This document shows positions 4,406 to 63,239 of a stretch of 64,000 nucleotides of DNA, in pieces (position 1 is the first letter of the stretch; each line of letters begins with the position of its first letter). This DNA comes from Escherichia phage moskry, in sequence record MN850651.1; one strand, 5' to 3'. Made by a program: the position numbers and the translations under genes. The notes under the pieces were generated by a model. It was not told the DNA's origin. It ran no database searches and saw only the letters and a program-made list of their open reading frames with translations.

Positions 4406-4424
4406 TGTTTTGTGAGAAAAATGC

Positions 4425-4448
4425 ACAAAAGGGAGCCCGAAGGCTCCC
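4425..4448 (-). terminator. rho-independent terminator hairpin downstream of gene 52
   Basis: GGGAGCC-CGAA-GGCTCCC stem-loop followed on - strand by a UUUUGU run. Confidence 0.6.
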
Positions 4449-4524
4449 TAATCATGTTTGTCCAACCAATACAGCCAAATCACTAGTACAGCTATTGCAC
4501 CGAGAAATCCTAAGGCTAGGGCAC

Positions 4525-6640: not shown

Positions 6641-6684
6641 GCTAATTTCCTCAATTGATTAATGTTTTTGTAATCCATGAGAGC

Positions 6685-6713
6685 ATTATACTCTGCTCTC
6701 AAGAGTTTGTACA
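6685..6713 (-). promoter_or_regulatory. early promoter upstream of ndd (TGTACA-N17-TATAAT) with dyad GAGAGCA/TGCTCTC flanking the -10
   Basis: Read directly on - strand. Confidence 0.5.
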
Positions 6714-6716
6714 ATT

Positions 6717-6917
6717 TTATTCGGCCATATCAGAACGTTCAAAAAGCTCTTCAACAGTTAAACATTCAGTGTCATCTTCAATAAAGAATCGAGTCCAACA
6801 CGTTGGGGCGATACAGTTATGAGTTTGTCCGGCGATAGAAGCTACACGAATAAGCTGCTGACCATTATTCAGAACAAATTTTTCACCAATTTCAACATCT
6901 TTAAAAAGCTTAGCCAT
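6717..6917 (-). CDS. hypothetical protein (66 aa)
   Basis: ORF track; SD GAGGAA before ATG; own promoter upstream. Confidence 0.45.
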   Translation of the reverse strand: MAKLFKDVEIGEKFVLNNGQQLIRVASIAGQTHNCIAPTCWTRFFIEDDTECLTVEELFERSDMAE

Positions 6918-6945
6918 TTTGTGTTCCTCATGTTTCAGTAGGACT

Positions 6946-6975
6946 ACTATACCATAATCCTACCTTGATGTAAAC
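6946..6975 (-). promoter_or_regulatory. early promoter GTTTAC-N18-TATAGT
   Basis: Consensus hexamers plus downstream AGTCCTA box; upstream of the 6717-6917 gene. Confidence 0.5.
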
Positions 6976-7167
6976 AATTAAATTACATTAAAATATGTTA
7001 AAGCCAACCATGTTCCAGTGAACGAACATGCGATGTAAAACCCCGTATCACAAATTGTTCTTAGTACAATAAGAAGTGCATTTTTCATAAGTACCTCAAC
7101 ACAATTGAAAATATTATACAAATCATAGGGATACTAAGCAACCATATTCCGATCCACATTTTAGAGC

Positions 7168-7431: not shown

Positions 7432-7457
7432 GATGTTATCCTCTTTTAGATAGGACT

Positions 7458-7487
7458 ACTATATCATAGTCCTACTTAGTTGTAAAC
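7458..7487 (-). promoter_or_regulatory. early promoter GTTTAC-N18-TATAGT embedded in dyad TAGGACT/AGTCCTA
   Basis: Read directly; upstream of the 7168-7431 gene. Confidence 0.5.
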
Positions 7488-7499
7488 ACTTTTATGAAA

Positions 7500-7976
7500 T
7501 TAAAGATGAAGATACCACCCGTTGTAGTTGCTCTTGCGGACGATTTTCTTTAGGTCTTCATGGTCTCCCACAAACTTTATAGAATAAGAGAAGACGTCAG
7601 GTGAGGTTTCTTTGACATCTAATATAATAATGCAATCTGCGACTCGATGATTCAAGAAGGGCCCTATATTGATTCCATTACCACCCGGATAATCACCACT
7701 GTATCCTGTGGTAACCGAAATCCATTTAGAATCTATCTGGTGTGTCTTGACTTCTACACGAATTCCACAATACTTGGGATGAGCTAACACGTCCCATGCA
7801 TACGTGTACGGGTCTTCTACGTCTTCAATACCTTTATTAACATATCCATCTAGCCAATTTGCTACTACATACTCTGCAAAGACTGCAACCTTACAACGTC
7901 GAACAACGTCTTCTTTTATTTGACCTGGATCTTGTTTCAACGAGTACCGAGCAGTATCAGCGATCTTAACCTTCAT
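7500..7976 (-). CDS. hypothetical protein (about 158 aa; track ORF extends to 8120)
   Basis: ORF track 7500-8120 overlaps the upstream gene by 128 nt; internal Met (MKVKIADTARYSL) gives a non-overlapping start. Lies at the position where T4 has denB; identity unverified. Confidence 0.4.
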   Translation of the reverse strand: MKVKIADTARYSLKQDPGQIKEDVVRRCKVAVFAEYVVANWLDGYVNKGIEDVEDPYTYAWDVLAHPKYCGIRVEVKTHQIDSKWISVTTGYSGDYPGGNGINIGPFLNHRVADCIIILDVKETSPDVFSYSIKFVGDHEDLKKIVRKSNYNGWYLHL

Positions 7977-8320: not shown

Positions 8321-9268
8321 TTATTCTGTAAATAATTCAGTAACGTCTGAAATTACTTCATAACGACAAGTACGCATCTTAGCATCGCCATAGTCAACCG
8401 GGATGGATACAACATCACGTGGATGAACTTTAACCTTAACAACTTTATCTGAGCTAGAACCAAAGTAACGAATATATGATTTAGCACAAACATGTAGACC
8501 ACGGGAGCAGGTTTGAGTATCATCATCGTTAACACGAGTACGAGGCATTGAAACAACTTTACCTGGCGAGTTATCAAATGTGCCACTATAGCAATCTAAA
8601 TAGTCTTTACGAACTACTTTCCACGCATAGAAATGCCCATCTTCAGTGATTTCAATATCGTTTGCAACCAAGAAGTCGAATAAACGTTGTACAGCTTTTT
8701 CGCTTGGGTTTTCTAACAGGTTTTCAAGGAACGGCAGATAGAATTTAAAGTCTTCGCCTTTTTCCATAGAATCAATAATACGATTAACCAGTCCTGAACG
8801 AATTTCTATACCTTGATAAAATAAACTACCACCTTCAATAGTAACATTACCGTCAACAAACTTAGTAATAGCTTTCTTGATGTTAATAAGTTCGACAGCT
8901 TTACTAAGGTTTCCTGCGACCAGATTAGCTTTAATTTCTTCAAAATTTGCATGACTTGATGGGGTCGCATTGTATGCTACGCGTCCTTCAATGATTGAAA
9001 TAAATTTAGATGACGCGTTCCATACGATTTCTGGACGATGACCTGTAATAATAGGTTCATTATTTTCTGGAACTTCTTCGATTACATAAGAGGCATCGTT
9101 TGCTTCAGGGACAACGCCTTCTGCTTTAAAATTCTTAACAATCTTACGAAGAGTATCTGTTGAAATGTCGAAGTAATCGGCAATTTCTTTACGAGTCCAT
9201 TTGCCTGATTTGACCAGGCCGTAAGCTTCTAACTGTTCTTCTTGGGACAAGCATTTGATATTGTACAT
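8321..9268 (-). CDS. rIIB: rIIB protein
   Basis: 315 aa; MYNIKCL.., ..RVNDDDTQTCSRGLHVC.KSYIR.FGSSS.KVVKVKVHPRDVVSIP.. match T4 rIIB from memory. Confidence 0.95.
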   Translation of the reverse strand: MYNIKCLSQEEQLEAYGLVKSGKWTRKEIADYFDISTDTLRKIVKNFKAEGVVPEANDASYVIEEVPENNEPIITGHRPEIVWNASSKFISIIEGRVAYNATPSSHANFEEIKANLVAGNLSKAVELINIKKAITKFVDGNVTIEGGSLFYQGIEIRSGLVNRIIDSMEKGEDFKFYLPFLENLLENPSEKAVQRLFDFLVANDIEITEDGHFYAWKVVRKDYLDCYSGTFDNSPGKVVSMPRTRVNDDDTQTCSRGLHVCAKSYIRYFGSSSDKVVKVKVHPRDVVSIPVDYGDAKMRTCRYEVISDVTELFTE

Positions 9269-16122: not shown

Positions 16123-16647
16123 TCATTTTAGCAAAATAAAATCAACTTGTTCTGCCAATGAACGTCTAAACATTAATTGACAACTTCCGAGGATGAAATC
16201 AGGTGCTTCATAGACCGCGATGTAGTATCCTTTAGCTTTCAAGAGTTCAACATCCACCTGGTCATCAAACCATGCATAAACCGCGTCAACACTTTCAAAT
16301 CCAAAATAGAACTCTTGAGCCCAATCTTCGTTCAATTCAAATGTGTGCTCAATTCTATAGTATCTTAAGATATTTTGTTCAAGGAGTTTGTCTTCATTTA
16401 CTGTAGGACGATTAGGGACATTATAGTTGTCGCCGTGATGGTAGAAGTTACCTGAGAGTATTCCATGTTTATCAAGGAATTCCCATGTTTCTTCAGAGTT
16501 GTCAGTGCCAGACCAACCGTATGGCGAACGAGGTTCTTTATTCCAAGAGGTTTCCCAAATTCTGACGGCTTTACCGTCTTTGATAGCAATTCCTGGTAAT
16601 GATTCACGTTGAGTACAAAAACTACGTTCTACGCGGTAAACTAACAT
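16123..16647 (-). CDS. hypothetical protein (174 aa)
   Basis: ORF track; SD GAGGAG 8 nt before ATG; own promoter. Confidence 0.5.
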   Translation of the reverse strand: MLVYRVERSFCTQRESLPGIAIKDGKAVRIWETSWNKEPRSPYGWSGTDNSEETWEFLDKHGILSGNFYHHGDNYNVPNRPTVNEDKLLEQNILRYYRIEHTFELNEDWAQEFYFGFESVDAVYAWFDDQVDVELLKAKGYYIAVYEAPDFILGSCQLMFRRSLAEQVDFILLK

Positions 16648-16652
16648 ATTAT

Positions 16653-16695
16653 TCTCCTCTGGTTGACATGGTTATAATATCAAAACCAGAGGAGA
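16653..16695 (-). promoter_or_regulatory. 13-bp inverted repeat (UUCUCCUCUGGUU / AACCAGAGGAGAA) able to sequester the SD of the 16647 gene in read-through RNA; promoter -10 lies in the loop
   Basis: Perfect complementarity read in sequence; the 3' arm contains the GAGGAG SD. Confidence 0.5.
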
Positions 16696-16702
16696 AGTAA
16701 AC
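16674..16702 (-). promoter_or_regulatory. early promoter GTTTAC-N17-TATTAT
   Basis: Consensus hexamers; transcripts starting here would lack the 5' arm of the SD-occluding hairpin. Confidence 0.5.
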
Positions 16703-16706
16703 AATT

Positions 16707-17126
16707 TTATGCGAAAGCAGCTGGGCTATATTTTTTAATTTGGAATTCAGGAACTACCATGAACTGACCAGCGAAAACGATGTTATAAAGCTTAACACCA
16801 TCTTCTACCCAACGGTCGCTAATAAATCCGGCGATTTGCTTAGTTTTCCATGGCGTTCCATCAGTTGCCGCAGCAATAGTGAATTCATGGTCTTTTTCAA
16901 CAGAAACTGATCTGCATAGTCCCCATTTGAACGCTTTTTCTTCTGGTTCAATGAACTGGCTTGAGACGTAGCCAATATTACCATTAGCATCACGAACTTT
17001 AACTTGGTTACGACCAAAAACCGGATCACTCACAGAAAGAACTTCAACCAACTTCCCGGCAACTTTAGAGCGAGAAGCAACAGATACATATACGTAATCA
17101 CCTGTAGAGAGATTTACAATATTCAT
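16707..17126 (-). CDS. hypothetical protein, member A of a tandem paralog trio
   Basis: 139 aa; shares N-terminal ..ASRSK.AGKLVEV.. and C-terminal ..GFISD.WVEDG.KLYNIVF.G.F.VV.. with the next gene. Confidence 0.55.
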   Translation of the reverse strand: MNIVNLSTGDYVYVSVASRSKVAGKLVEVLSVSDPVFGRNQVKVRDANGNIGYVSSQFIEPEEKAFKWGLCRSVSVEKDHEFTIAAATDGTPWKTKQIAGFISDRWVEDGVKLYNIVFAGQFMVVPEFQIKKYSPAAFA

Positions 17127-17135
17127 AATAATTCC

Positions 17136-17600
17136 TTAAGCTTTACGAGGAGACACATAGCGAGTGATTTCAGATTCTTTAACAACTCGGAAGTCACCTA
17201 AGAATACGATATTGTATAACTTTTCACCATCTTCAACCCATTGGTCACTAATGAAGCCACACATAGTATCAGTTTTGCTTGGATAACCGTATTCATCGAT
17301 GAAGTCAAATTCTTTATCAGTCTGGAATTCAACGCCTTTGCAAAGGGCCCATTTGAACTGTGTAGTAGGCTCAACTATATCGCTTGAAGCAAAGTGGGCA
17401 CTTACACGAGTTTCCAAGAATTTAGGACTTACATAGGCGAACTGAGTTTCAGTTTTTCCAGAACTAGGAATGATTCGAACTTTAACTTCTTTAATACGGC
17501 CCATGCCATTAGTACGAAGTCCTACTACTTCAACCAGCTTTCCTGCAGCTTTAGAACGAGACGCTGTCGATACACGTTTAATTTCACCAATATTAATCAT
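17136..17600 (-). CDS. hypothetical protein, member B of the tandem paralog trio
   Basis: Track ORF 17136-17663 begins inside the promoter; internal Met MINIGEIKRVSTASRSKAAGKLVEV.. aligns with the N-terminus of member A. Confidence 0.5.
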   Translation of the reverse strand: MINIGEIKRVSTASRSKAAGKLVEVVGLRTNGMGRIKEVKVRIIPSSGKTETQFAYVSPKFLETRVSAHFASSDIVEPTTQFKWALCKGVEFQTDKEFDFIDEYGYPSKTDTMCGFISDQWVEDGEKLYNIVFLGDFRVVKESEITRYVSPRKA

Positions 17601-17630
17601 ATTTTTTCTCTCTTTGTTTAAATTGAATTC

Positions 17631-17660
17631 ATTATACTCCATCCATCCTTGGATGTACAA
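17631..17660 (-). promoter_or_regulatory. early promoter, copy 1 of a repeated about 30-bp module (TGTACA-N17-TATAAT)
   Basis: ATTATACTCCATCCATCCTTGGATGTACAA on + strand. Confidence 0.5.
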
Positions 17661-17662
17661 CA

Positions 17663-18157
17663 TTAATTTAGAATATTAACTACTGCACTACGTGGAACAA
17701 CGCTAAAATCACCGGCATGAACAACGTTCAGAAGTTCAACCCCATCTTCAATCCACTGATCAGTTACCCATCCACTCACTGGACCTGCGAACGGACGACG
17801 AATTGAAACAGCTTTACACAACAAATCAGTAGGCTCAATAGGCTTAATCAGAGTACCGTACATACAAGCGATATCCATATCAATACAGATGTCTTTAACG
17901 GGTTCTACTTCTTCAACCAACAGTTCAAAGTCGGTGCTTGGAAGGGCGGTAGTAGAAATTGTACCATATGAATTTTTAATTTCTAAGAATAACCAAGGGC
18001 CTTCAGCTTGTTTGATGAAGTTAACAATAGTGAAACTATTACCTTGAGTGGCACCTAAAATTTCACAAAACTTTTCATAAGCTCGCACTGAAGCACCATA
18101 CCAGTTGATTTGTTTTTCGTCTTTCAGGATGTAAGTAGCCGTAGTATTGATATTCAT
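17663..18157 (-). CDS. hypothetical protein, member C of the tandem paralog trio
   Basis: 164 aa; C-terminal ..SGWVTDQWIEDGVELLNVVHAGDFSVVP.. related to members A and B. Confidence 0.5.
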   Translation of the reverse strand: MNINTTATYILKDEKQINWYGASVRAYEKFCEILGATQGNSFTIVNFIKQAEGPWLFLEIKNSYGTISTTALPSTDFELLVEEVEPVKDICIDMDIACMYGTLIKPIEPTDLLCKAVSIRRPFAGPVSGWVTDQWIEDGVELLNVVHAGDFSVVPRSAVVNILN

Positions 18158-18188
18158 AATGTTTTTCCTGTTTGGTTAAGATAGAAAG

Positions 18189-18218
18189 ATTATACTCCAA
18201 CCATCCTTGGTTGTAAAC
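18189..18218 (-). promoter_or_regulatory. early promoter, copy 2 of the repeated module (GTTTAC-N18-TATAAT)
   Basis: ATTATACTCCAACCATCCTTGGTTGTAAAC on + strand; nearly identical at about 60265 and 61285. Confidence 0.5.
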
Positions 18219-24215: not shown

Positions 24216-24244
24216 CAAAAAAAAAAGGAATCCCGAAGGATTCC
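24216..24244 (-). terminator. strong rho-independent terminator downstream of soc
   Basis: GGAAUCC-CGAA-GGAUUCC stem-loop followed on - strand by a run of about 10 U. Confidence 0.7.
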
Positions 24245-24253
24245 TTAAATTAT

Positions 24254-28377: not shown

Positions 28378-28406
28378 TTTAACTCCTTAGTTGATTTGAT
28401 AGGACT

Positions 28407-28436
28407 ACTATAACATAGTCCATCTATAATGTAAAC
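28407..28436 (-). promoter_or_regulatory. early promoter GTTTAC-N18-TATAGT
   Basis: Read directly, with dyad GGACUA/UAGUCC around the -10. Confidence 0.5.
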
Positions 28437-28440
28437 AAGT

Positions 28441-28689
28441 TTATTCTTTTTCGCGAATAATAATTACTTGTTGAGGCTGCTGAGCAGATTTCTTTTCGGC
28501 AACGATAGACCAAATTAAAGTTCCAATCCAACCAATCATCGTCCAGTTAAAGAGTAAAGATACAAAGAAGATTGCTGTTGTGCCTTTTGTGCCACGAATA
28601 AGTGCGATTACCCAAGGCAACATGTAAATGATGATTGAACCAATACCTGCGATTAAAACTGCTACTGAACTAGCCACGAATAATTCCAT
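28441..28689 (-). CDS. two-TM membrane protein, superinfection-immunity (Imm)-like
   Basis: 82 aa; ..YMLPWVIALIRGTKGTTAIFFVSLLFNWTMIGWIGTLIWSIV.. resembles the LPxxIA..R....NWT.IGW pattern of Imm-family proteins (from memory). Confidence 0.4.
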   Translation of the reverse strand: MELFVASSVAVLIAGIGSIIIYMLPWVIALIRGTKGTTAIFFVSLLFNWTMIGWIGTLIWSIVAEKKSAQQPQQVIIIREKE

Positions 28690-29906: not shown

Positions 29907-29932
29907 TTTGTTCTCCAGTAGTTGATAGGTCT

Positions 29933-29960
29933 ATAATAACACAACTACTGGAGAAGTAAA
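29933..29960 (-). promoter_or_regulatory. early promoter GTTTAC-N16/17-TATTAT
   Basis: Read directly; followed by AGACCTATCAAC. Confidence 0.5.
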
Positions 29961-29961
29961 C

Positions 29962-30336
29962 TTAAAAACGTAATTTAGATATATCTGCGTTGATTTCGTT
30001 TTGGTTCGCGTCATATGCAATTAAACGAACCGCTTTAGATGGGTCATTCAATGCATAGAAATGATGGAACATTGCTCGAACGATATCACCATTTACGAGT
30101 TCTACCTGGATAGGAGAACCTTTTTCGAGTTGGAAATGTTCATAAGCTTTGATGGTTCGTAGATAATCAAGTTTTTGATTTCCAGCTCCAACTATTTGTA
30201 CGATACGTTTGCCCATGTTTTCCATACGAGATACAATAGTTTTAGGAGCAAGAATAACGTAGGTTGCCAGCGGAGAAACTACTTCAACAGTTGTGTTTTC
30301 GGTGATTGCAGTAAAAATTGCTTGAGACATATTCAT
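29962..30336 (-). CDS. hypothetical protein (124 aa)
   Basis: ORF track. Confidence 0.5.
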   Translation of the reverse strand: MNMSQAIFTAITENTTVEVVSPLATYVILAPKTIVSRMENMGKRIVQIVGAGNQKLDYLRTIKAYEHFQLEKGSPIQVELVNGDIVRAMFHHFYALNDPSKAVRLIAYDANQNEINADISKLRF

Positions 30337-49473: not shown

Positions 49474-49499
49474 AAAAAAAAGGAACTCCGAAGAGTTCC
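49474..49499 (-). terminator. terminator hairpin upstream of gene 47 / downstream of a small ORF
   Basis: GGAACUC-CGAA-GAGUUCC followed on - strand by a U8 run. Confidence 0.6.
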
Positions 49500-49672
49500 T
49501 ATCCACATAGTACACCGTACAGAGGCTCATTTGAACTTTTAAATCGAATGGGCTTGTATGTAATAGTTCCTTCGGCTTTAGCTTTATCATAAGACTCTTT
49601 AAAACGTCTCATTCTTTCTGCTTTGCCTTTACTGATTTTATCGAAATTTTCAGAAGTCGGGATGTTCGTCAT
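49499..49672 (-). CDS. small hypothetical protein (57 aa)
   Basis: Not in ORF track; MTNIPTSENFDKISKGKAERMRRFKESYDKAKAEGTITYKPIRFKSSNEPLYGVLCG; occupies the region where T4 carries alpha-gt. Confidence 0.3.
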   Translation of the reverse strand: MTNIPTSENFDKISKGKAERMRRFKESYDKAKAEGTITYKPIRFKSSNEPLYGVLCG

Positions 49673-51869: not shown

Positions 51870-51906
51870 ATTATTTTCCTCGGTTATTTTATTATCCAAC
51901 GAGAGA

Positions 51907-51935
51907 ATTATACTCATCTCTCAAGAGTTTGTATA
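51907..51935 (-). promoter_or_regulatory. early promoter (TATACA-N17-TATAAT) with dyad GAGAGA/TCTCTC
   Basis: Read directly. Confidence 0.45.
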
Positions 51936-52175
51936 CTATTTTTTAAGCATGAAAAGTAAGTAATTTGTATCACGTGGAGTAATATCAACACCCATATCAA
52001 AGATGCCTTTATAGATTGGGTATTTGTTTTCGGTTGTATCGAAGCTGAAACTATTTCCATCACAACTAACAGTAATAGCATCTGTTAAAATGTCATACTC
52101 AATCCTAACAATTGAATCCCCAATTTTAACGTCGAGGTGTTTTTTGAATTTGATAAAATCTAATTCTTGGGCCAT
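51936..52175 (-). CDS. hypothetical protein (79 aa)
   Basis: ORF track. Confidence 0.4.
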   Translation of the reverse strand: MAQELDFIKFKKHLDVKIGDSIVRIEYDILTDAITVSCDGNSFSFDTTENKYPIYKGIFDMGVDITPRDTNYLLFMLKK

Positions 52176-58978: not shown

Positions 58979-59283
58979 TATAATGTTCTCTCAAATTTGT
59001 GGAAGCATTTACGGCATTTCAATTTCAAGTTATCAGTGGTCCAGTTAACCAGTTGGACTTGGATAGTTCCACATTCCGGGCATGGATGTTTTGCTGCCGA
59101 TTTGGCAGCATTTTCACGTCGTTCAACCATTTTCATTATTTCGTTCCATGCCGGAGGAACGAACTCTTCTTCACCGTGGATTTTATCTCGCTGAACAAAT
59201 TCGATCTTTGAACTATCGTCAATAAACTTAACCAAGCCATGATTAGTGCTCATATCAATATCCTCTAAAAGACGTAGTTTCAT
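58978..59283 (-). CDS. zinc-ribbon protein (101 aa)
   Basis: ..CPECGTIQV..CRKCFHKF.. near the C-terminus. Confidence 0.5.
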   Translation of the reverse strand: MKLRLLEDIDMSTNHGLVKFIDDSSKIEFVQRDKIHGEEEFVPPAWNEIMKMVERRENAAKSAAKHPCPECGTIQVQLVNWTTDNLKLKCRKCFHKFERTL

Positions 59284-60233
59284 TATAACACCTCAATGGC
59301 ATTTCGTAAACCATCCGCTTTCGCATTCAGAGCTTTTAACGATTTAGTTTGTTCTGCAATCTGGGCTTCGACTTCTTTCAGACGAGATTTGAGATATTCG
59401 CGTTCTTCTCTTAAGTTATCAACTTTTTCTGCTTTAGGCTCTTTAATAGGCTTAGGCTTATACTCGTTAGGGTTCTTCAACTTAATTTGAATGCGAGAAC
59501 TGTATAACATTGAACCATTATCTTCGGTTTCATCATACATTTCTACCACGTCCATGATTCTTAACATCATGCGAAGTTTATAAGACAGCGAACGAACGGT
59601 TTTGTTGCGCTTATTAATTTCTTCGGCTTTCATGGTACCGAGATTACGTGAGTAGTAATAAGGAACCTGGATATCAATTGATAATGATGCGTTACCATTA
59701 CCGGTTGGTTTGAATACTGCAGTAACCCAATCTTTAACATGAACTTTATTTGTACGATCATCGCCGCCTGTGAATAATTTACGAGAATGTTTAAAAAGCA
59801 TATTCACTTGGTTATTGAATTCACAAGCAAATTTATCAGCAAATTTAGTTTCAGGAATGGTAGATAACCAATCAGCCAAATGAGTCTTTTTAACATCATT
59901 AACAATAGTGAATTCAACCAAATCGGTTTTAGATGTCACAGATTTAATAAAGCTCGGCTTCATAAAGTTTTTAATGTTATCGCGAGCTACAGTAGAAGAT
60001 AATAAACGAGAACGTTTGAACCATTGAAGCAACGTCCCTAACGAATGAGAATACGCATTTTGAGTATCTTTACAGATATGATTTTCTTGGCCTATGTATG
60101 TACCAAAATCGCGAAGAATACCACTTACTACATCTCGGTGTGGAACATCAAATCCTAGTGCACCAGAAGCACGTTGGGCATGAACGTTAGCGATAAGACC
60201 TGCAAAGTATTCAATGTAATGTGAACGTGTCAT
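59283..60233 (-). CDS. hypothetical protein with C-terminal coiled coil (316 aa)
   Basis: ORF track; heptad-like C-terminal 50 aa (..LKSRLKEVEAQIAEQTKSLKALNAKADGLRNAIEVL). Confidence 0.5.
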   Translation of the reverse strand: MTRSHYIEYFAGLIANVHAQRASGALGFDVPHRDVVSGILRDFGTYIGQENHICKDTQNAYSHSLGTLLQWFKRSRLLSSTVARDNIKNFMKPSFIKSVTSKTDLVEFTIVNDVKKTHLADWLSTIPETKFADKFACEFNNQVNMLFKHSRKLFTGGDDRTNKVHVKDWVTAVFKPTGNGNASLSIDIQVPYYYSRNLGTMKAEEINKRNKTVRSLSYKLRMMLRIMDVVEMYDETEDNGSMLYSSRIQIKLKNPNEYKPKPIKEPKAEKVDNLREEREYLKSRLKEVEAQIAEQTKSLKALNAKADGLRNAIEVL

Positions 60234-60260: not shown

Positions 60261-60290
60261 CATTATACTCCAACCATCCTTGGTTGTAAA
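60261..60290 (-). promoter_or_regulatory. early promoter, copy 3 of the repeated module (GTTTAC-N18-TATAAT)
   Basis: ATTATACTCCAACCATCCTTGGTTGTAAAC, identical to the copy at about 18189. Confidence 0.5.
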
Positions 60291-60295
60291 CTATT

Positions 60296-61255
60296 TTATG
60301 ATTTTAATGCATTCATTGCGTTAAAAAGTTTAGAATACTGCAACTGGAGATTCGTTACAACACTTTGAGCATCACGAAGTTTAGCTTGTGCTTTGTCAAG
60401 TTCAACAGACAGTTGGTCCATAGTGGCCTTGATTTGATTATAATGGTAATCTTCGGCCGGAAGAAGGTCATTAGAAACATTTAGTTTTACTGCAGACAGT
60501 TTGCACACATTTGGCAAACCTTTAAACATTGATTTACCCGAAGTAGAATAAGCACTTAGGACTTCGGCCTGTTCAATTGGGGTCCCAGTAAGCGATGCTT
60601 CAAACGTTGCATTTTCCTTTTTAAGATTTTGATAATATTCGGAGTCTTTGTGCCACCATGGCGCAGGAACCTTTTTACCAATAGATACACGAGCCTGGAT
60701 AGCGATATGGCCCTTATTCTTGATAGGGTTGATAATATTAAGCTCACGAGAATAAATTGCTTTAATCTGGTGAATATTATCACCTAAAACTTCCAACGCT
60801 TGGTGGAATACACGAGCAACGTTATCATTCTTAGGTTTATACGTAAGAGTGAACTCATTCTCACTGATAACCATGATTTCCAACTTATCGTAAGTATATT
60901 TCAAATGTTTCATGTTAATTGCTTGAGGATGAATACGAGAAGCAATGGCCATCAGATTGTTAAGGTTATTCCGGAACTGCTTAGCGAAATATTGTCCTTC
61001 ACCGCCAATACAAAAATTACGAAGTTTCTGTTTGGCTAATAAACGGCTGAACTCACCATTTTTAATGAACTCTTTAACGGGTGTGTTAGTAACGCATTCA
61101 AATTGAGTAAACTTACGAGAAGTAATCCCATAATATGAACAGACTTCCTCAATCTCTTCAGGAGTCTTTACAGGCATACGGATAGGATTAGGTCCTGGAG
61201 TATATGCGTTCGAGGTAAATTCTTTGATAAGTTCTTTACGTGTAATAAAAGCCAT
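60296..61255 (-). CDS. hypothetical protein with C-terminal coiled coil (319 aa)
   Basis: ORF track; C-terminal ..LDKAQAKLRDAQSVVTNLQLQYSKLFNAMNALKS. Confidence 0.5.
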   Translation of the reverse strand: MAFITRKELIKEFTSNAYTPGPNPIRMPVKTPEEIEEVCSYYGITSRKFTQFECVTNTPVKEFIKNGEFSRLLAKQKLRNFCIGGEGQYFAKQFRNNLNNLMAIASRIHPQAINMKHLKYTYDKLEIMVISENEFTLTYKPKNDNVARVFHQALEVLGDNIHQIKAIYSRELNIINPIKNKGHIAIQARVSIGKKVPAPWWHKDSEYYQNLKKENATFEASLTGTPIEQAEVLSAYSTSGKSMFKGLPNVCKLSAVKLNVSNDLLPAEDYHYNQIKATMDQLSVELDKAQAKLRDAQSVVTNLQLQYSKLFNAMNALKS

Positions 61256-61281: not shown

Positions 61282-61310
61282 ATTATACTCCAACCATCCT
61301 TGGTTGTACA
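61282..61310 (-). promoter_or_regulatory. early promoter, copy 4 of the repeated module (TGTACA-N17-TATAAT)
   Basis: ATTATACTCCAACCATCCTTGGTTGTACA. Confidence 0.5.
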
Positions 61311-62306
61311 TCATTCCTTAAGAAGTTTTACTACTTGAATAAGATTAGCTCGTTCTGTTTTATTTTTACCATTTAAGCCTGCTAATCGTGAGATTTCATC
61401 GTCAGTCTGTTGAATAGTTACATTAAGTTCGTTAATCAAAGCTTCAAAGTATTTGATTTGCTCAGCATGTTTTGATTCAAATTTCTGAACAGGAATAACG
61501 TCTTGGTTCAGTTCATCAATAAGGTCTTTAAGAGCATCTTCTTGGTTGATATCATATTCAACTTCTTTTATTTCTTCAACGAGCTCGTCTTTATATCTAA
61601 CGTCTTTTAGTCCTGGTGCTGGTCCTGAAATCTCTTCTTTAAGAGTACAAACATATCCAATACGGTATCCAATGCCGTCTCGCTTGATATCAACTTCGTC
61701 GATAAATCCACAATGTTTAAGACCAGAGCCGATTAGGTCAAAATATCCTTGACGTCGTCCTTCAAACGTTACACGAACTACTAAGACAGTTTTACCTGCA
61801 ACCTTTTGAAGCTCACATTTATAAAAGTCAGTTGAACCTGAATAACTTGGATGAGTTTTAAAGTTCATCTGACGATCTAGGCCCATTTGTAAGCGTGCTG
61901 TTACGGCCATAAAACGTGTTTGGTTCTCGTTAAGATGAGCAACAATCCATTTCAAAGGCATTTTACACTGTTCACGACCGAACAAATCAGTACGTCCTAG
62001 ATTACGCAGGATGTTGTTAGAGTTAATCATCGACAGAACGTTAAGTTTATTCAGCGCGCTGAAGATTCCATCAGCCATTGATTTTCCATAACCTTTACAC
62101 GCTTTAATAAGTGCTCGCGGCAGATTAGTATAGATTTCAGACGGCATATGAAAATCAAATTTACTAACCAGTAATTGATGAACTTGGATAGCAATTTGTT
62201 CATAATTAAGTGCTCTGCGATCGTTATGGTCTTTAAACCACACTTTAATCTGTGAAGCACATAAACCGTTAATTTCATGTTTTACCGCATCAGATGTAAT
62301 GCTCAT
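61311..62306 (-). CDS. hypothetical protein with C-terminal coiled coil (331 aa)
   Basis: ORF track. Confidence 0.5.
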   Translation of the reverse strand: MSITSDAVKHEINGLCASQIKVWFKDHNDRRALNYEQIAIQVHQLLVSKFDFHMPSEIYTNLPRALIKACKGYGKSMADGIFSALNKLNVLSMINSNNILRNLGRTDLFGREQCKMPLKWIVAHLNENQTRFMAVTARLQMGLDRQMNFKTHPSYSGSTDFYKCELQKVAGKTVLVVRVTFEGRRQGYFDLIGSGLKHCGFIDEVDIKRDGIGYRIGYVCTLKEEISGPAPGLKDVRYKDELVEEIKEVEYDINQEDALKDLIDELNQDVIPVQKFESKHAEQIKYFEALINELNVTIQQTDDEISRLAGLNGKNKTERANLIQVVKLLKE

Positions 62307-62368
62307 AACTATTTCCTCAGATTGAATTGGAACTCAAAACCATTATAACCCGTCCTTGGGTAAAGCGT

Positions 62369-62893: not shown

Positions 62894-62920
62894 GTTTTAC
62901 CTCCAGTAGTTGATAGGTCT

Positions 62921-62949
62921 ATAATAACATAACTATAGACCTTGTAAAC
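62921..62949 (-). promoter_or_regulatory. early promoter GTTTAC-N17-TATTAT
   Basis: Read directly; followed by AGACCTATCAAC. Confidence 0.5.
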
Positions 62950-62951
62950 AA

Positions 62952-63239
62952 CTAAAAGAAACTTTTTTCGGTATTTTTTCCACTGAACCAAACCGACTTC
63001 GGGATTTTTTGTAATTTTTCAGATTTAAGTTTCTCTTCCAGTTCTTTCTTATATACACCCTTGTCGTACTGGAGCATCTCTATGGCATTCTTTTGCAAAC
63101 GATCTAAGGTAATTAAGGCTTTAGTTTTTCCTTTCAAGGAAGAGTCCTGGCGAACCTCCTCGCTATATTGCATCGTAGAACTAACCATACGATGAGCATA
63201 CAGTTCGACTGCGGCTTTAATTTTTTGCATAAAATCCAT
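62952..63239 (-). CDS. hypothetical protein (95 aa)
   Basis: ORF track. Confidence 0.4.
   Translation of the reverse strand: MDFMQKIKAAVELYAHRMVSSTMQYSEEVRQDSSLKGKTKALITLDRLQKNAIEMLQYDKGVYKKELEEKLKSEKLQKIPKSVWFSGKNTEKSFF

Follow-up and report, generated by a model that had tools for sequence, protein, structure and literature searches.

Why would a phage carry one promoter sequence, spacer included, in near-identical form before four genes that lie in two distant clusters? The question is raised by Escherichia phage moskry (sequence record MN850651.1), of which one stretch of 64,000 nucleotides, referred to here as the window, was analysed. An initial annotation of this DNA had pointed to four near-identical copies of a 30-bp promoter module and had suggested that they reflect a protein-binding operator, a recent duplication or recombination cassettes that shuffle accessory genes. 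Our best reading is that the module is an early-promoter cassette of the promoter-early stem-loop (PeSL) kind, as described for T4-like phages (PMC2839356, PMC4122927), with a distinctive and conserved hairpin in its spacer. Specifically, we consider it probable that the copies are early promoters with a spacer hairpin, that they act as a substrate for PeSL-type shuffling, and that the hairpin acts on RNA read through from upstream.

The window comes from an RB69-like, T4-type phage of the genus Mosigvirus; its top match is vB_EcoM_WFbE185 (99.2%), and APCEc01, JS09 and RB69 match it too. The four copies of the module are these:

17631..17660, minus strand: module copy of motB, TTGTACATCCAAGGATGGATGGAGTATAAT, with -35 box TGTACA, 17-nt spacer and -10 box TATAAT
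18189..18218, minus strand: module copy of motB.1, GTTTACAACCAAGGATGGTTGGAGTATAAT, with the dexA stop codon 6 nt upstream
60262..60291, minus strand: module copy of nrdC.3, the same as the motB.1 copy at 30 of 30 nt
61282..61311, minus strand: module copy of nrdC.5, ATGTAC plus an identical 24-nt remainder, overlapping the nrdC.6 stop codon

The 30-mer occurs without mismatch at 18189-18218 and 60262-60291, and the site at 61282-61311 has 2 mismatches; zero matches are expected (100 shuffles). The fourth copy was recovered by a degenerate pattern at 17631-17659. Over all 30 nt (17631-17660) it departs from the 30-mer at 4 positions, two of which reflect a compensatory change, an A-T pair of the dyad being replaced by T-A. 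The four near-identical copies upstream of motB, motB.1, nrdC.3 and nrdC.5, in two distant clusters, are therefore as the initial annotation described them; its coordinates for the two distant copies were off by one base.

On the minus strand, the orientation first proposed, all four copies read TTTACA or TGTACA, 17 nt, TATAAT, and they are the best sigma-70 matches in both regions (10-11 of 12 consensus positions). A Shine-Dalgarno sequence and an ATG lie 26-31 nt downstream of the module in every case, the stop codon of the upstream gene is 0-6 nt away from each copy, and similarity between the copies stops about 5 nt upstream of the core and fades over about 15 nt downstream. By this anatomy each copy is a T4-type sigma-70 early promoter for one accessory gene, its activity and early timing being predicted from the sequence, and one GenBank record labels the module site a promoter, by consensus only. 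What sets the module apart is its spacer and not its hexamers: a generic search for GTTTAC-N17-TATAAT gave no enrichment (16 found, 13.9 expected in shuffles). Spacer identity is 0.89-1.0 among the four copies as against a mean of 0.40 and a maximum of 0.72 for 12 other early-promoter candidates in the window, so that the aligned copies are clearly more alike than other early promoters are.

The module occurs in 242 phage records, Mosigvirus having 3-4 copies of it and Dhakavirus a single one. Divergence was measured between the window and APCEc01, EP02SG, RB69 and JS09, the sequences having been collected by flank matches rather than by matches to the motif. Differences were counted at 4/330 positions in the module (1.2%), at 24/324 in the leaders (7.4%; Fisher p = 6.6e-5 for module vs leader) and at 4.0-6.6% in the flanking 300 nt of coding sequence, meaning that the module diverges 4-6 times slower than its flanks; only two of its four changes fall in the spacer. 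The module is thus under constraint, and its spacer is more conserved than promoter function calls for, as had been suspected at the outset. Moreover, every relative examined keeps the copy-specific bases, namely GTTTAC...AACCA in the motB.1 and nrdC.3 copies, ATGTAC in the nrdC.5 copy and TTGTAC...ATCCA..GGAT in the motB copy. Since each copy keeps its own diagnostic bases across the genus, the copies are old and individually maintained rather than young duplicates. As a separate observation, the motB copy of RB69 has its -10 box weakened to TATAAA and its leader shortened.

By RB69 and JS09 annotation, cluster 1 runs dda, dexA, motB.1, motB, a motB-like gene, motB.2 and cef in minus-strand order, and cluster 2 runs nrdC.9, nrdC.8, nrdC.6, nrdC.5, nrdC.3 and nrdC.2. 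The genes served by the module are as follows:

17136..17600, minus strand: motB (PF17613), the gene behind the module copy at 17631
17663..18157, minus strand: motB.1, a cassette between two module copies; homolog of T4 MotB.1
59283..60233, minus strand: nrdC.3 (phrog_1435), the gene behind the module copy at 60262
60296..61255, minus strand: nrdC.5 (DUF7235), a cassette between two module copies; distant homolog of T4 NrdC.5

These genes had been taken initially for members of two paralog sets, which does not hold. There is no mutual similarity between nrdC.3, nrdC.5 and nrdC.6, which belong to three different PHROG families, and motB.1 has only a C-terminal stretch in common with motB; paralogy of the downstream genes was accordingly ruled out as the source of the repeat. 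Between the window's nrdC.5 and T4 NrdC.5 there is 24% identity (E = 2e-11). Recent duplication of the module likewise finds no support, given downstream genes that are unrelated or only distantly related, site-specific variants kept genus-wide, and similar hairpins in T4 as well as in Dhakavirus and Tegunavirus.

The intervening genes are lost in nature, and the losses have their breakpoints in the module. Phage AV116 is without nrdC.5. Aligned to the window it gives two blocks, and what these have in common is precisely 27 nt of module sequence; the junction has its -35 side from the nrdC.5 copy and its leader from the nrdC.3 copy. The nrdC.5-loss junction occurs uninterrupted in 21 of 155 related records at 90-100% identity. 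For motB.1 the expected junction was built in silico before the search, from the dexA end, the module and the motB leader, and about 17 phages match it without a break, among them PTE-Eco05, AV114, AV115, AV116, AV118, JK42, JK45, G2285, S143_2, PNJ-9 and PTK. A recombination role is supported because this junction was predicted and then observed in nature. Nine motB.1-loss junctions were read and all have the breakpoint inside the module, in three classes: the crossover lies in GGAGTATAAT in seven phages, in the loop core in JK42, where it leaves a hybrid AACCA...TGGAT stem with a mismatch, and in TACA, on the 5' side of the stem, in G2285. Three classes of junction point to several independent crossovers within about 27 nt. 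The losses of motB.1 and nrdC.5 are not strictly linked, JM10 being without nrdC.5 and with motB.1, and both junction types are present in metagenome contigs too. That the module is a recombination substrate, in which a crossover between neighbouring copies removes the intervening accessory gene, is well supported by these junctions, and the shuffling of accessory genes is the one among the suggested origins that gains from the comparison: relatives exist in which exactly the intervening gene is missing.

Two records with the Mosigvirus-type dexA-module-motB junction have taxonomy lines that seem at odds with their sequence, OM982647.1 (ST2) standing under Guernseyvirinae/Kagunavirus and MK962757.1 (JK45) under Tequatrovirus. 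The order of the genes also differs between genera (window 16123-18157): T4 and JS10 have dexA, motB.2, motB.1, motB, and Mosigvirus has dexA, motB.1, motB, the motB-like gene, motB.2, from which it follows that the motB cluster has been shuffled as well as trimmed. In the RB69 record (AY303349, 2877-3373) motB.1 is split between two annotated open reading frames (ORFs), motB.1 and RB69ORF012c; in the window and in JS09 there is a single gene of 164 amino acids, which suggests a frameshift or a sequencing error in the RB69 record. Within the motB.1 coding sequence there is also a sub-threshold match to the Rfam Y_RNA family (window 17919-18007, minus strand; 26.6 bits vs a gathering score of 38; E = 0.006), most likely a chance match.

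These data bear on an explanation in which the module has no function beyond that of a promoter, its copies being young duplicates or homogenised by gene conversion and its palindrome being kept by templated (quasi-palindrome) mutation. Such a view has in its favour the crossovers documented inside the module, the viability of phages with imperfect hairpins, and the patchwork leaders, which suggest short-patch exchange between copies: after the -10 box the nrdC.3 copy reads cttt in RB69 and AV116, like the motB.1 copy, and gaat in the window and JS09, like the motB copy. However, the differences between the copies (GTTTAC/TTGTAC/ATGTAC; AACCA/ATCCA) are kept throughout the genus, which argues that homogenisation is not continuing, and neither the unrelated downstream genes nor the slow divergence of the module relative to its flanks would be expected. 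T4, Dhakavirus and Yersinia phage TG1, moreover, have retained a hairpin with this loop on different stems and in another promoter class, and such persistence needs long-term selection. We therefore hold this to be the least probable of the explanations weighed here.

The spacer hairpins, with a fifth element found beyond the four module copies, are located as follows:

17640..17655, minus strand: spacer hairpin CATCCA-AGGA-TGGATG, a compensated stem variant
18198..18213, minus strand: spacer hairpin CAACCA-AGGA-TGGTTG, directly followed by GAGTATAAT; the last G of the hairpin opens GGAG
60271..60286, minus strand: spacer hairpin CAACCA-AGGA-TGGTTG
61291..61306, minus strand: spacer hairpin CAACCA-AGGA-TGGTTG
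62342..62366, minus strand: MotA-box-type middle promoter before nrdC.6, GCTTTACCCAAGGACGGGTTATAAT, with hairpin ACCC-AAGGAC-GGGT

Between the motB copy and the others the stem changes from CAACCA/TGGTTG to CATCCA/TGGATG, a compensated pair. The same core is found in T4 in the promoter spacers of nrdC.3 (AGCCA/TGGCT), nrdC.4 (CCACA/TGTGG) and nrdC.7 (TACCA/TGGTA), the last of these being a MotA-box middle promoter. In Dhakavirus JS10 the hairpin stands before nrdC.4, nrdC.6 and modA (about 8830-8870, with G.U pairs in the stem), and in TG1 (about 2317-2342) it lies in a MotA-type promoter beside alt. As it is present at JS10 modA and TG1 alt, the hairpin is not tied to the motB and nrdC clusters. 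The T4 nrdC.7 and JS10 nrdC.6 promoters carry the orthologous version of the window's nrdC.6 hairpin, with a different compensated stem.

Covariation was assessed over 11 distinct variants drawn from Mosigvirus, Dhakavirus, T4 and TG1. Stem cells are paired in 90.9% of cases vs 62% in shuffles, a fraction that is inflated in that several of the sequences were found via the motif or the stem. The covariation score is 0.697 vs 0.146 for shuffled sets, with 0/500 shuffles as high, and sliding the partner columns lowers it to 0.05-0.18. One stem pair takes five types (AU, UA, CG, GC and GU), and neither the closing C-G pair nor the loop AAGGA varies, giving C[AAGGAN]G. When the window was searched for C-A-N-G-G-A-N-G flanked by 3 or more pairs, the minus strand gave 6 hairpins and the plus strand 2 (0.87 expected, both strands), and all five CAAGGAYG-loop hairpins from this search fall in promoter spacers. 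In the 147 kb of T4 there are only three CAAGGATG hairpins, those in the nrdC.3, nrdC.4 and nrdC.7 promoter spacers. The distance from the hairpin to the -10 box differs among T4 nrdC.4, T4 nrdC.7 and the module.

Looser scans (GCTTTA..AAGGA..TATAAT and TTTAC..AAGGA..TATAAT) returned mostly chance matches, most of them with 0-1 flanking pairs among the matches listed; they were used as a null set only, and the TG1 example came from them. A hairpin match in a cyanophage-like record (L260) was taken as chance, and a metagenome scan added a single new stem variant, a G.U intermediate. An Rfam scan found no family at the modules and, elsewhere, only sub-threshold chance matches, and a literature search for the hairpin core sequence returned unrelated primer sequences only. 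The possibility that AAGGAUG is a Shine-Dalgarno sequence or opens a mini-ORF was rejected, as the spacing does not fit, no reading frame is kept between variants and the AUG is lost wherever the variant has ACG.

The dyad had been proposed initially to be an operator. On this account it would be bound as double-stranded DNA, between the -35 and -10 boxes, by a dimeric phage early protein (for example of the MotB family) or by a host regulator that co-regulates the four genes. The geometry is suitable, in that the half-sites of the 6+4+6 inverted repeat have their centres separated by about 10 bp and the repeat lies where a bound repressor would obstruct RNA polymerase, and the same sequence does stand before four genes in two clusters. 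Two of the four genes served by the module encode MotB-family proteins, and T4 MotB binds DNA, although this binding is reported to be non-specific. What counts against an operator is that the half-sites covary (A-T, T-A, G-C, C-G and G.T at one pair) and the asymmetric 8-nt centre CAAGGAYG is invariant, where a symmetric dimer would conserve its half-sites. The varying distance to the -10 box (T4 nrdC.4, T4 nrdC.7, module) and the occurrence of the motif in sigma-70 and MotA-type promoters alike also speak against it. In addition, the cytosines of T-even phage DNA carry extensive modification, which makes the major groove harder for host proteins to read. We now think an operator unlikely. 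The evidence instead favours a nucleic-acid structure that is read at its loop, because the arms covary round an invariant asymmetric centre, the distance to the -10 box varies and two promoter classes carry it.

Such a structure could in principle act at the level of DNA, as single-stranded DNA or a cruciform that signals to a phage nuclease or recombination protein and so promotes cassette exchange. Natural indel breakpoints do lie within or beside the hairpin, one of them in the loop core, and the authors of the PeSL work raise the idea of a protein that targets the stem-loop. However, the crossover points are spread over the whole 27-nt shared stretch, as in plain homologous recombination, and short patches of homology (<50 bp) are reported to suffice for recombination in T4. 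A 6-bp stem is very short for cruciform extrusion. The invariant asymmetric loop occurs, too, at single sites in T4 and TG1 where there is no partner copy nearby. We rate a DNA-level signal as rather improbable, somewhat more so than an operator.

We return to the explanation that we favour, early promoters with a hairpin acting in RNA, which has two consequences. The promoter boxes and the hairpin would all be under selection, with the result that about 27 nt stay identical between copies, and this identity would offer enough homology for the phage's efficient recombination system to cross over between neighbours. The crossover would remove, or in reverse re-insert, the intervening gene together with one promoter, and a working hybrid promoter would be left before the next gene. 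Near the module copies we found no terminator-like site on the minus strand, and read-through transcription into the modules is plausible on that basis. As the hairpin lies upstream of the module's own start, and with no terminator upstream, it would be carried in RNA only by transcripts begun at an upstream promoter and read through. There it would act, whether as a tag recognised by a loop-specific factor or, once the adjacent GGAGUAUAA has been cleaved, as a 3' structure, and either way it would tell read-through RNA from the RNA of the gene's own promoter.

Several observations weigh against this explanation. The hairpin is thermodynamically weak, 81-nt folds give z of -0.9 to +0.8, and another fold is preferred by one copy. 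JK42 is viable with an A.A mismatch in its hairpin stem, as is JS09, in which the loop of the motB.1 copy reads AAGA and not AGGA. To the inflated paired fraction noted above may be added the wobble-pair counts, which are balanced and do not distinguish the sense from the antisense strand. If intergenic RNA is all that is needed, the strict confinement of the hairpin to the spacer is explained only by assuming very short intergenic regions. Finally, the definition of a PeSL includes an upstream terminator stem-loop, whereas the module has none upstream and the preceding stop codon lies within 6 nt of it.

The cassettes exchanged in this way may matter to the phage. T4 NrdC.5 allows the phage to evade the Dsr1 defence system, and when a deletion removes it the host range becomes narrower (PMC9391042); T4 MotB.1 has a predicted RNA-associated, LSm-like fold. 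By analogy motB.1 and nrdC.5 may be accessory genes of the kind that sets host range, and their gain and loss through the module would plausibly alter the counter-defence and regulatory repertoire of RB69-like phages. RB69-like phages are widely used in phage therapy collections. The module would thus represent a sequence-defined route for gene gain and loss whose junctions can be predicted, as for motB.1. A covarying hairpin with a loop like that of CsrA sites, in promoter spacers of several T-even genera, is in turn a candidate for a new layer of post-transcriptional control or for the use of a host factor.

It remains to compare the module with known systems. With T4 early promoters (GTTTAC, about 17 nt, TATAAT and an A-rich upstream region) it shares hexamers, spacing, orientation and position before early genes. 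It is unlike many other early promoters in the window in being without a TGn extended -10 box, and unlike T4 early promoters generally in the conservation of its whole spacer, which promoter function does not require.

In the T4 genes e, soc, 49 and I-TevI a hairpin, or its 5' half, lies upstream of an internal start and forms only in long transcripts (PMC3014915). The module resembles these in having its structure upstream of an internal start, so that two RNA populations would differ, but those hairpins sequester the Shine-Dalgarno sequence or the AUG, whereas the module hairpin excludes the ribosome-binding site. The window itself has other repeated early-promoter modules, which fall into at least three families (D1, D3 and D9) of the classical T4 design, in which the ribosome-binding site is masked only in read-through RNA, and these may be recombination substrates too:

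6939-6992, 7451-7504 and 28400-28453: further promoter-module family
16654-16717, 29913-29976 and 62901-62964: further promoter-module family
6665-6721 and 51887-51943: further promoter-module family

A G+C-rich hairpin family (D10) stands beside an A-run on the plus strand at 4423-4449, 24219-24245 and 49474-49500; read on the minus strand it consists of a stem, a UUCG-type loop, a stem and a U-run, and its members look like intrinsic terminators of early transcription units.

The loop of the module also recalls binding sites of CsrA/RsmA. In the passage quoted in PMC4347634, the consensus from systematic evolution of ligands by exponential enrichment (SELEX) is RUACARGGAUGU, with GGA in a hairpin loop, and the ACA is said to be 100% conserved. 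Like such sites, the module has GGA in the loop of a short hairpin; CAAGGAYG is present in all the hairpin's variants, and its stem covaries. T4 nrdC.4 matches the consensus at 10/12 positions and TG1 at 11/12, both with ACA, whereas the module matches at 9/12 and has CCA in place of ACA. Unlike CsrA/RsmA sites, the motB copy is without a second GGA site at the Shine-Dalgarno sequence, and the element belongs to a phage; a literature search for a link between CsrA and T4 mRNA found none. We treat the likeness as a candidate lead from the sequence, a resemblance and not membership.

A second lead of this kind is GGAGUAUAA beside the hairpin loop, which resembles a RegB site. The RegB/S1 site is GGAGRAYARAA and the T4 motB model substrate is GGAGUAUAAAA (PMC1702504). 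Right after the stem the module has GGAGUAUAAU(G/C/A), which matches the first 9 nt of GGAGUAUAAAA and which, as in RegB/S1 sites, is intergenic, in an early region and A/U-rich. In most predicted folds it is unpaired. Unlike RegB/S1 substrates, GGAGUAUAAU overlaps the -10 box and has U at position 10, rare in good substrates, and the middle-promoter versions of the hairpin are without GGAG. Because of the overlap with the -10 box, GGAGUAUAAU would be present only on read-through RNA. RegB cleavage inside the T4 hairpin loop was considered and set aside, since only 2/30 intergenic GGAU sites of T4 are reported to be cut and neither appears to be in the nrdC region. In the T4 motB leader GGAGTATAAAA, the classic substrate of RegB, comes shortly after the real -10 box (GAGTATAAT). 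It looks as if the 3' part of the module were repeated there in degenerate form, a hint of an old promoter duplication or of slippage at this site.

Taking both leads together, one may speculate that T-even-type phages of enterobacteria have, in the C[AAGGAN]G hairpin, an RNA element so far overlooked, placed in promoter spacers so that only read-through RNA carries it. It would be bound by the host's global regulator CsrA, to whose preferred ligand it is closely similar, or by another loop-specific RNA-binding protein and would silence, process or stabilise that RNA, perhaps with RegB cleavage at GGAGUAUAA. We regard this as a tentative proposal, improbable on balance but with some chance of being right. 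If it were true, each accessory cassette would be insulated post-transcriptionally, a job done by the terminator in classical PeSLs.

It is with the PeSLs, found in RB49/phi1, T4/PST and KVP40/nt-1, that the likeness is closest to the reading given here. In both systems a conserved early-promoter motif is repeated between accessory ORFs, in intergenic positions and in variable parts of the genome, the module having four copies in two clusters. In both, recombination between neighbouring copies deletes, inserts or swaps ORFs, with PeSL crossovers mapping between the -35 box and the ATG, and close relatives differ by indels with breakpoints in the element, as seen for nrdC.5 and motB.1. Both elements have a stem-loop, and the PeSL authors speculated about a protein targeting theirs. 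A description of PeSLs in RB69-like phages was not found in the literature searched. The module differs in having its hairpin inside the spacer, without a U-tract and with an invariant GGA loop, and in numbering 4-5 copies per genome as against dozens of PeSLs. The principle of shuffling is thus one already published for PeSLs, and the conserved spacer hairpin is what makes the module distinct from them.

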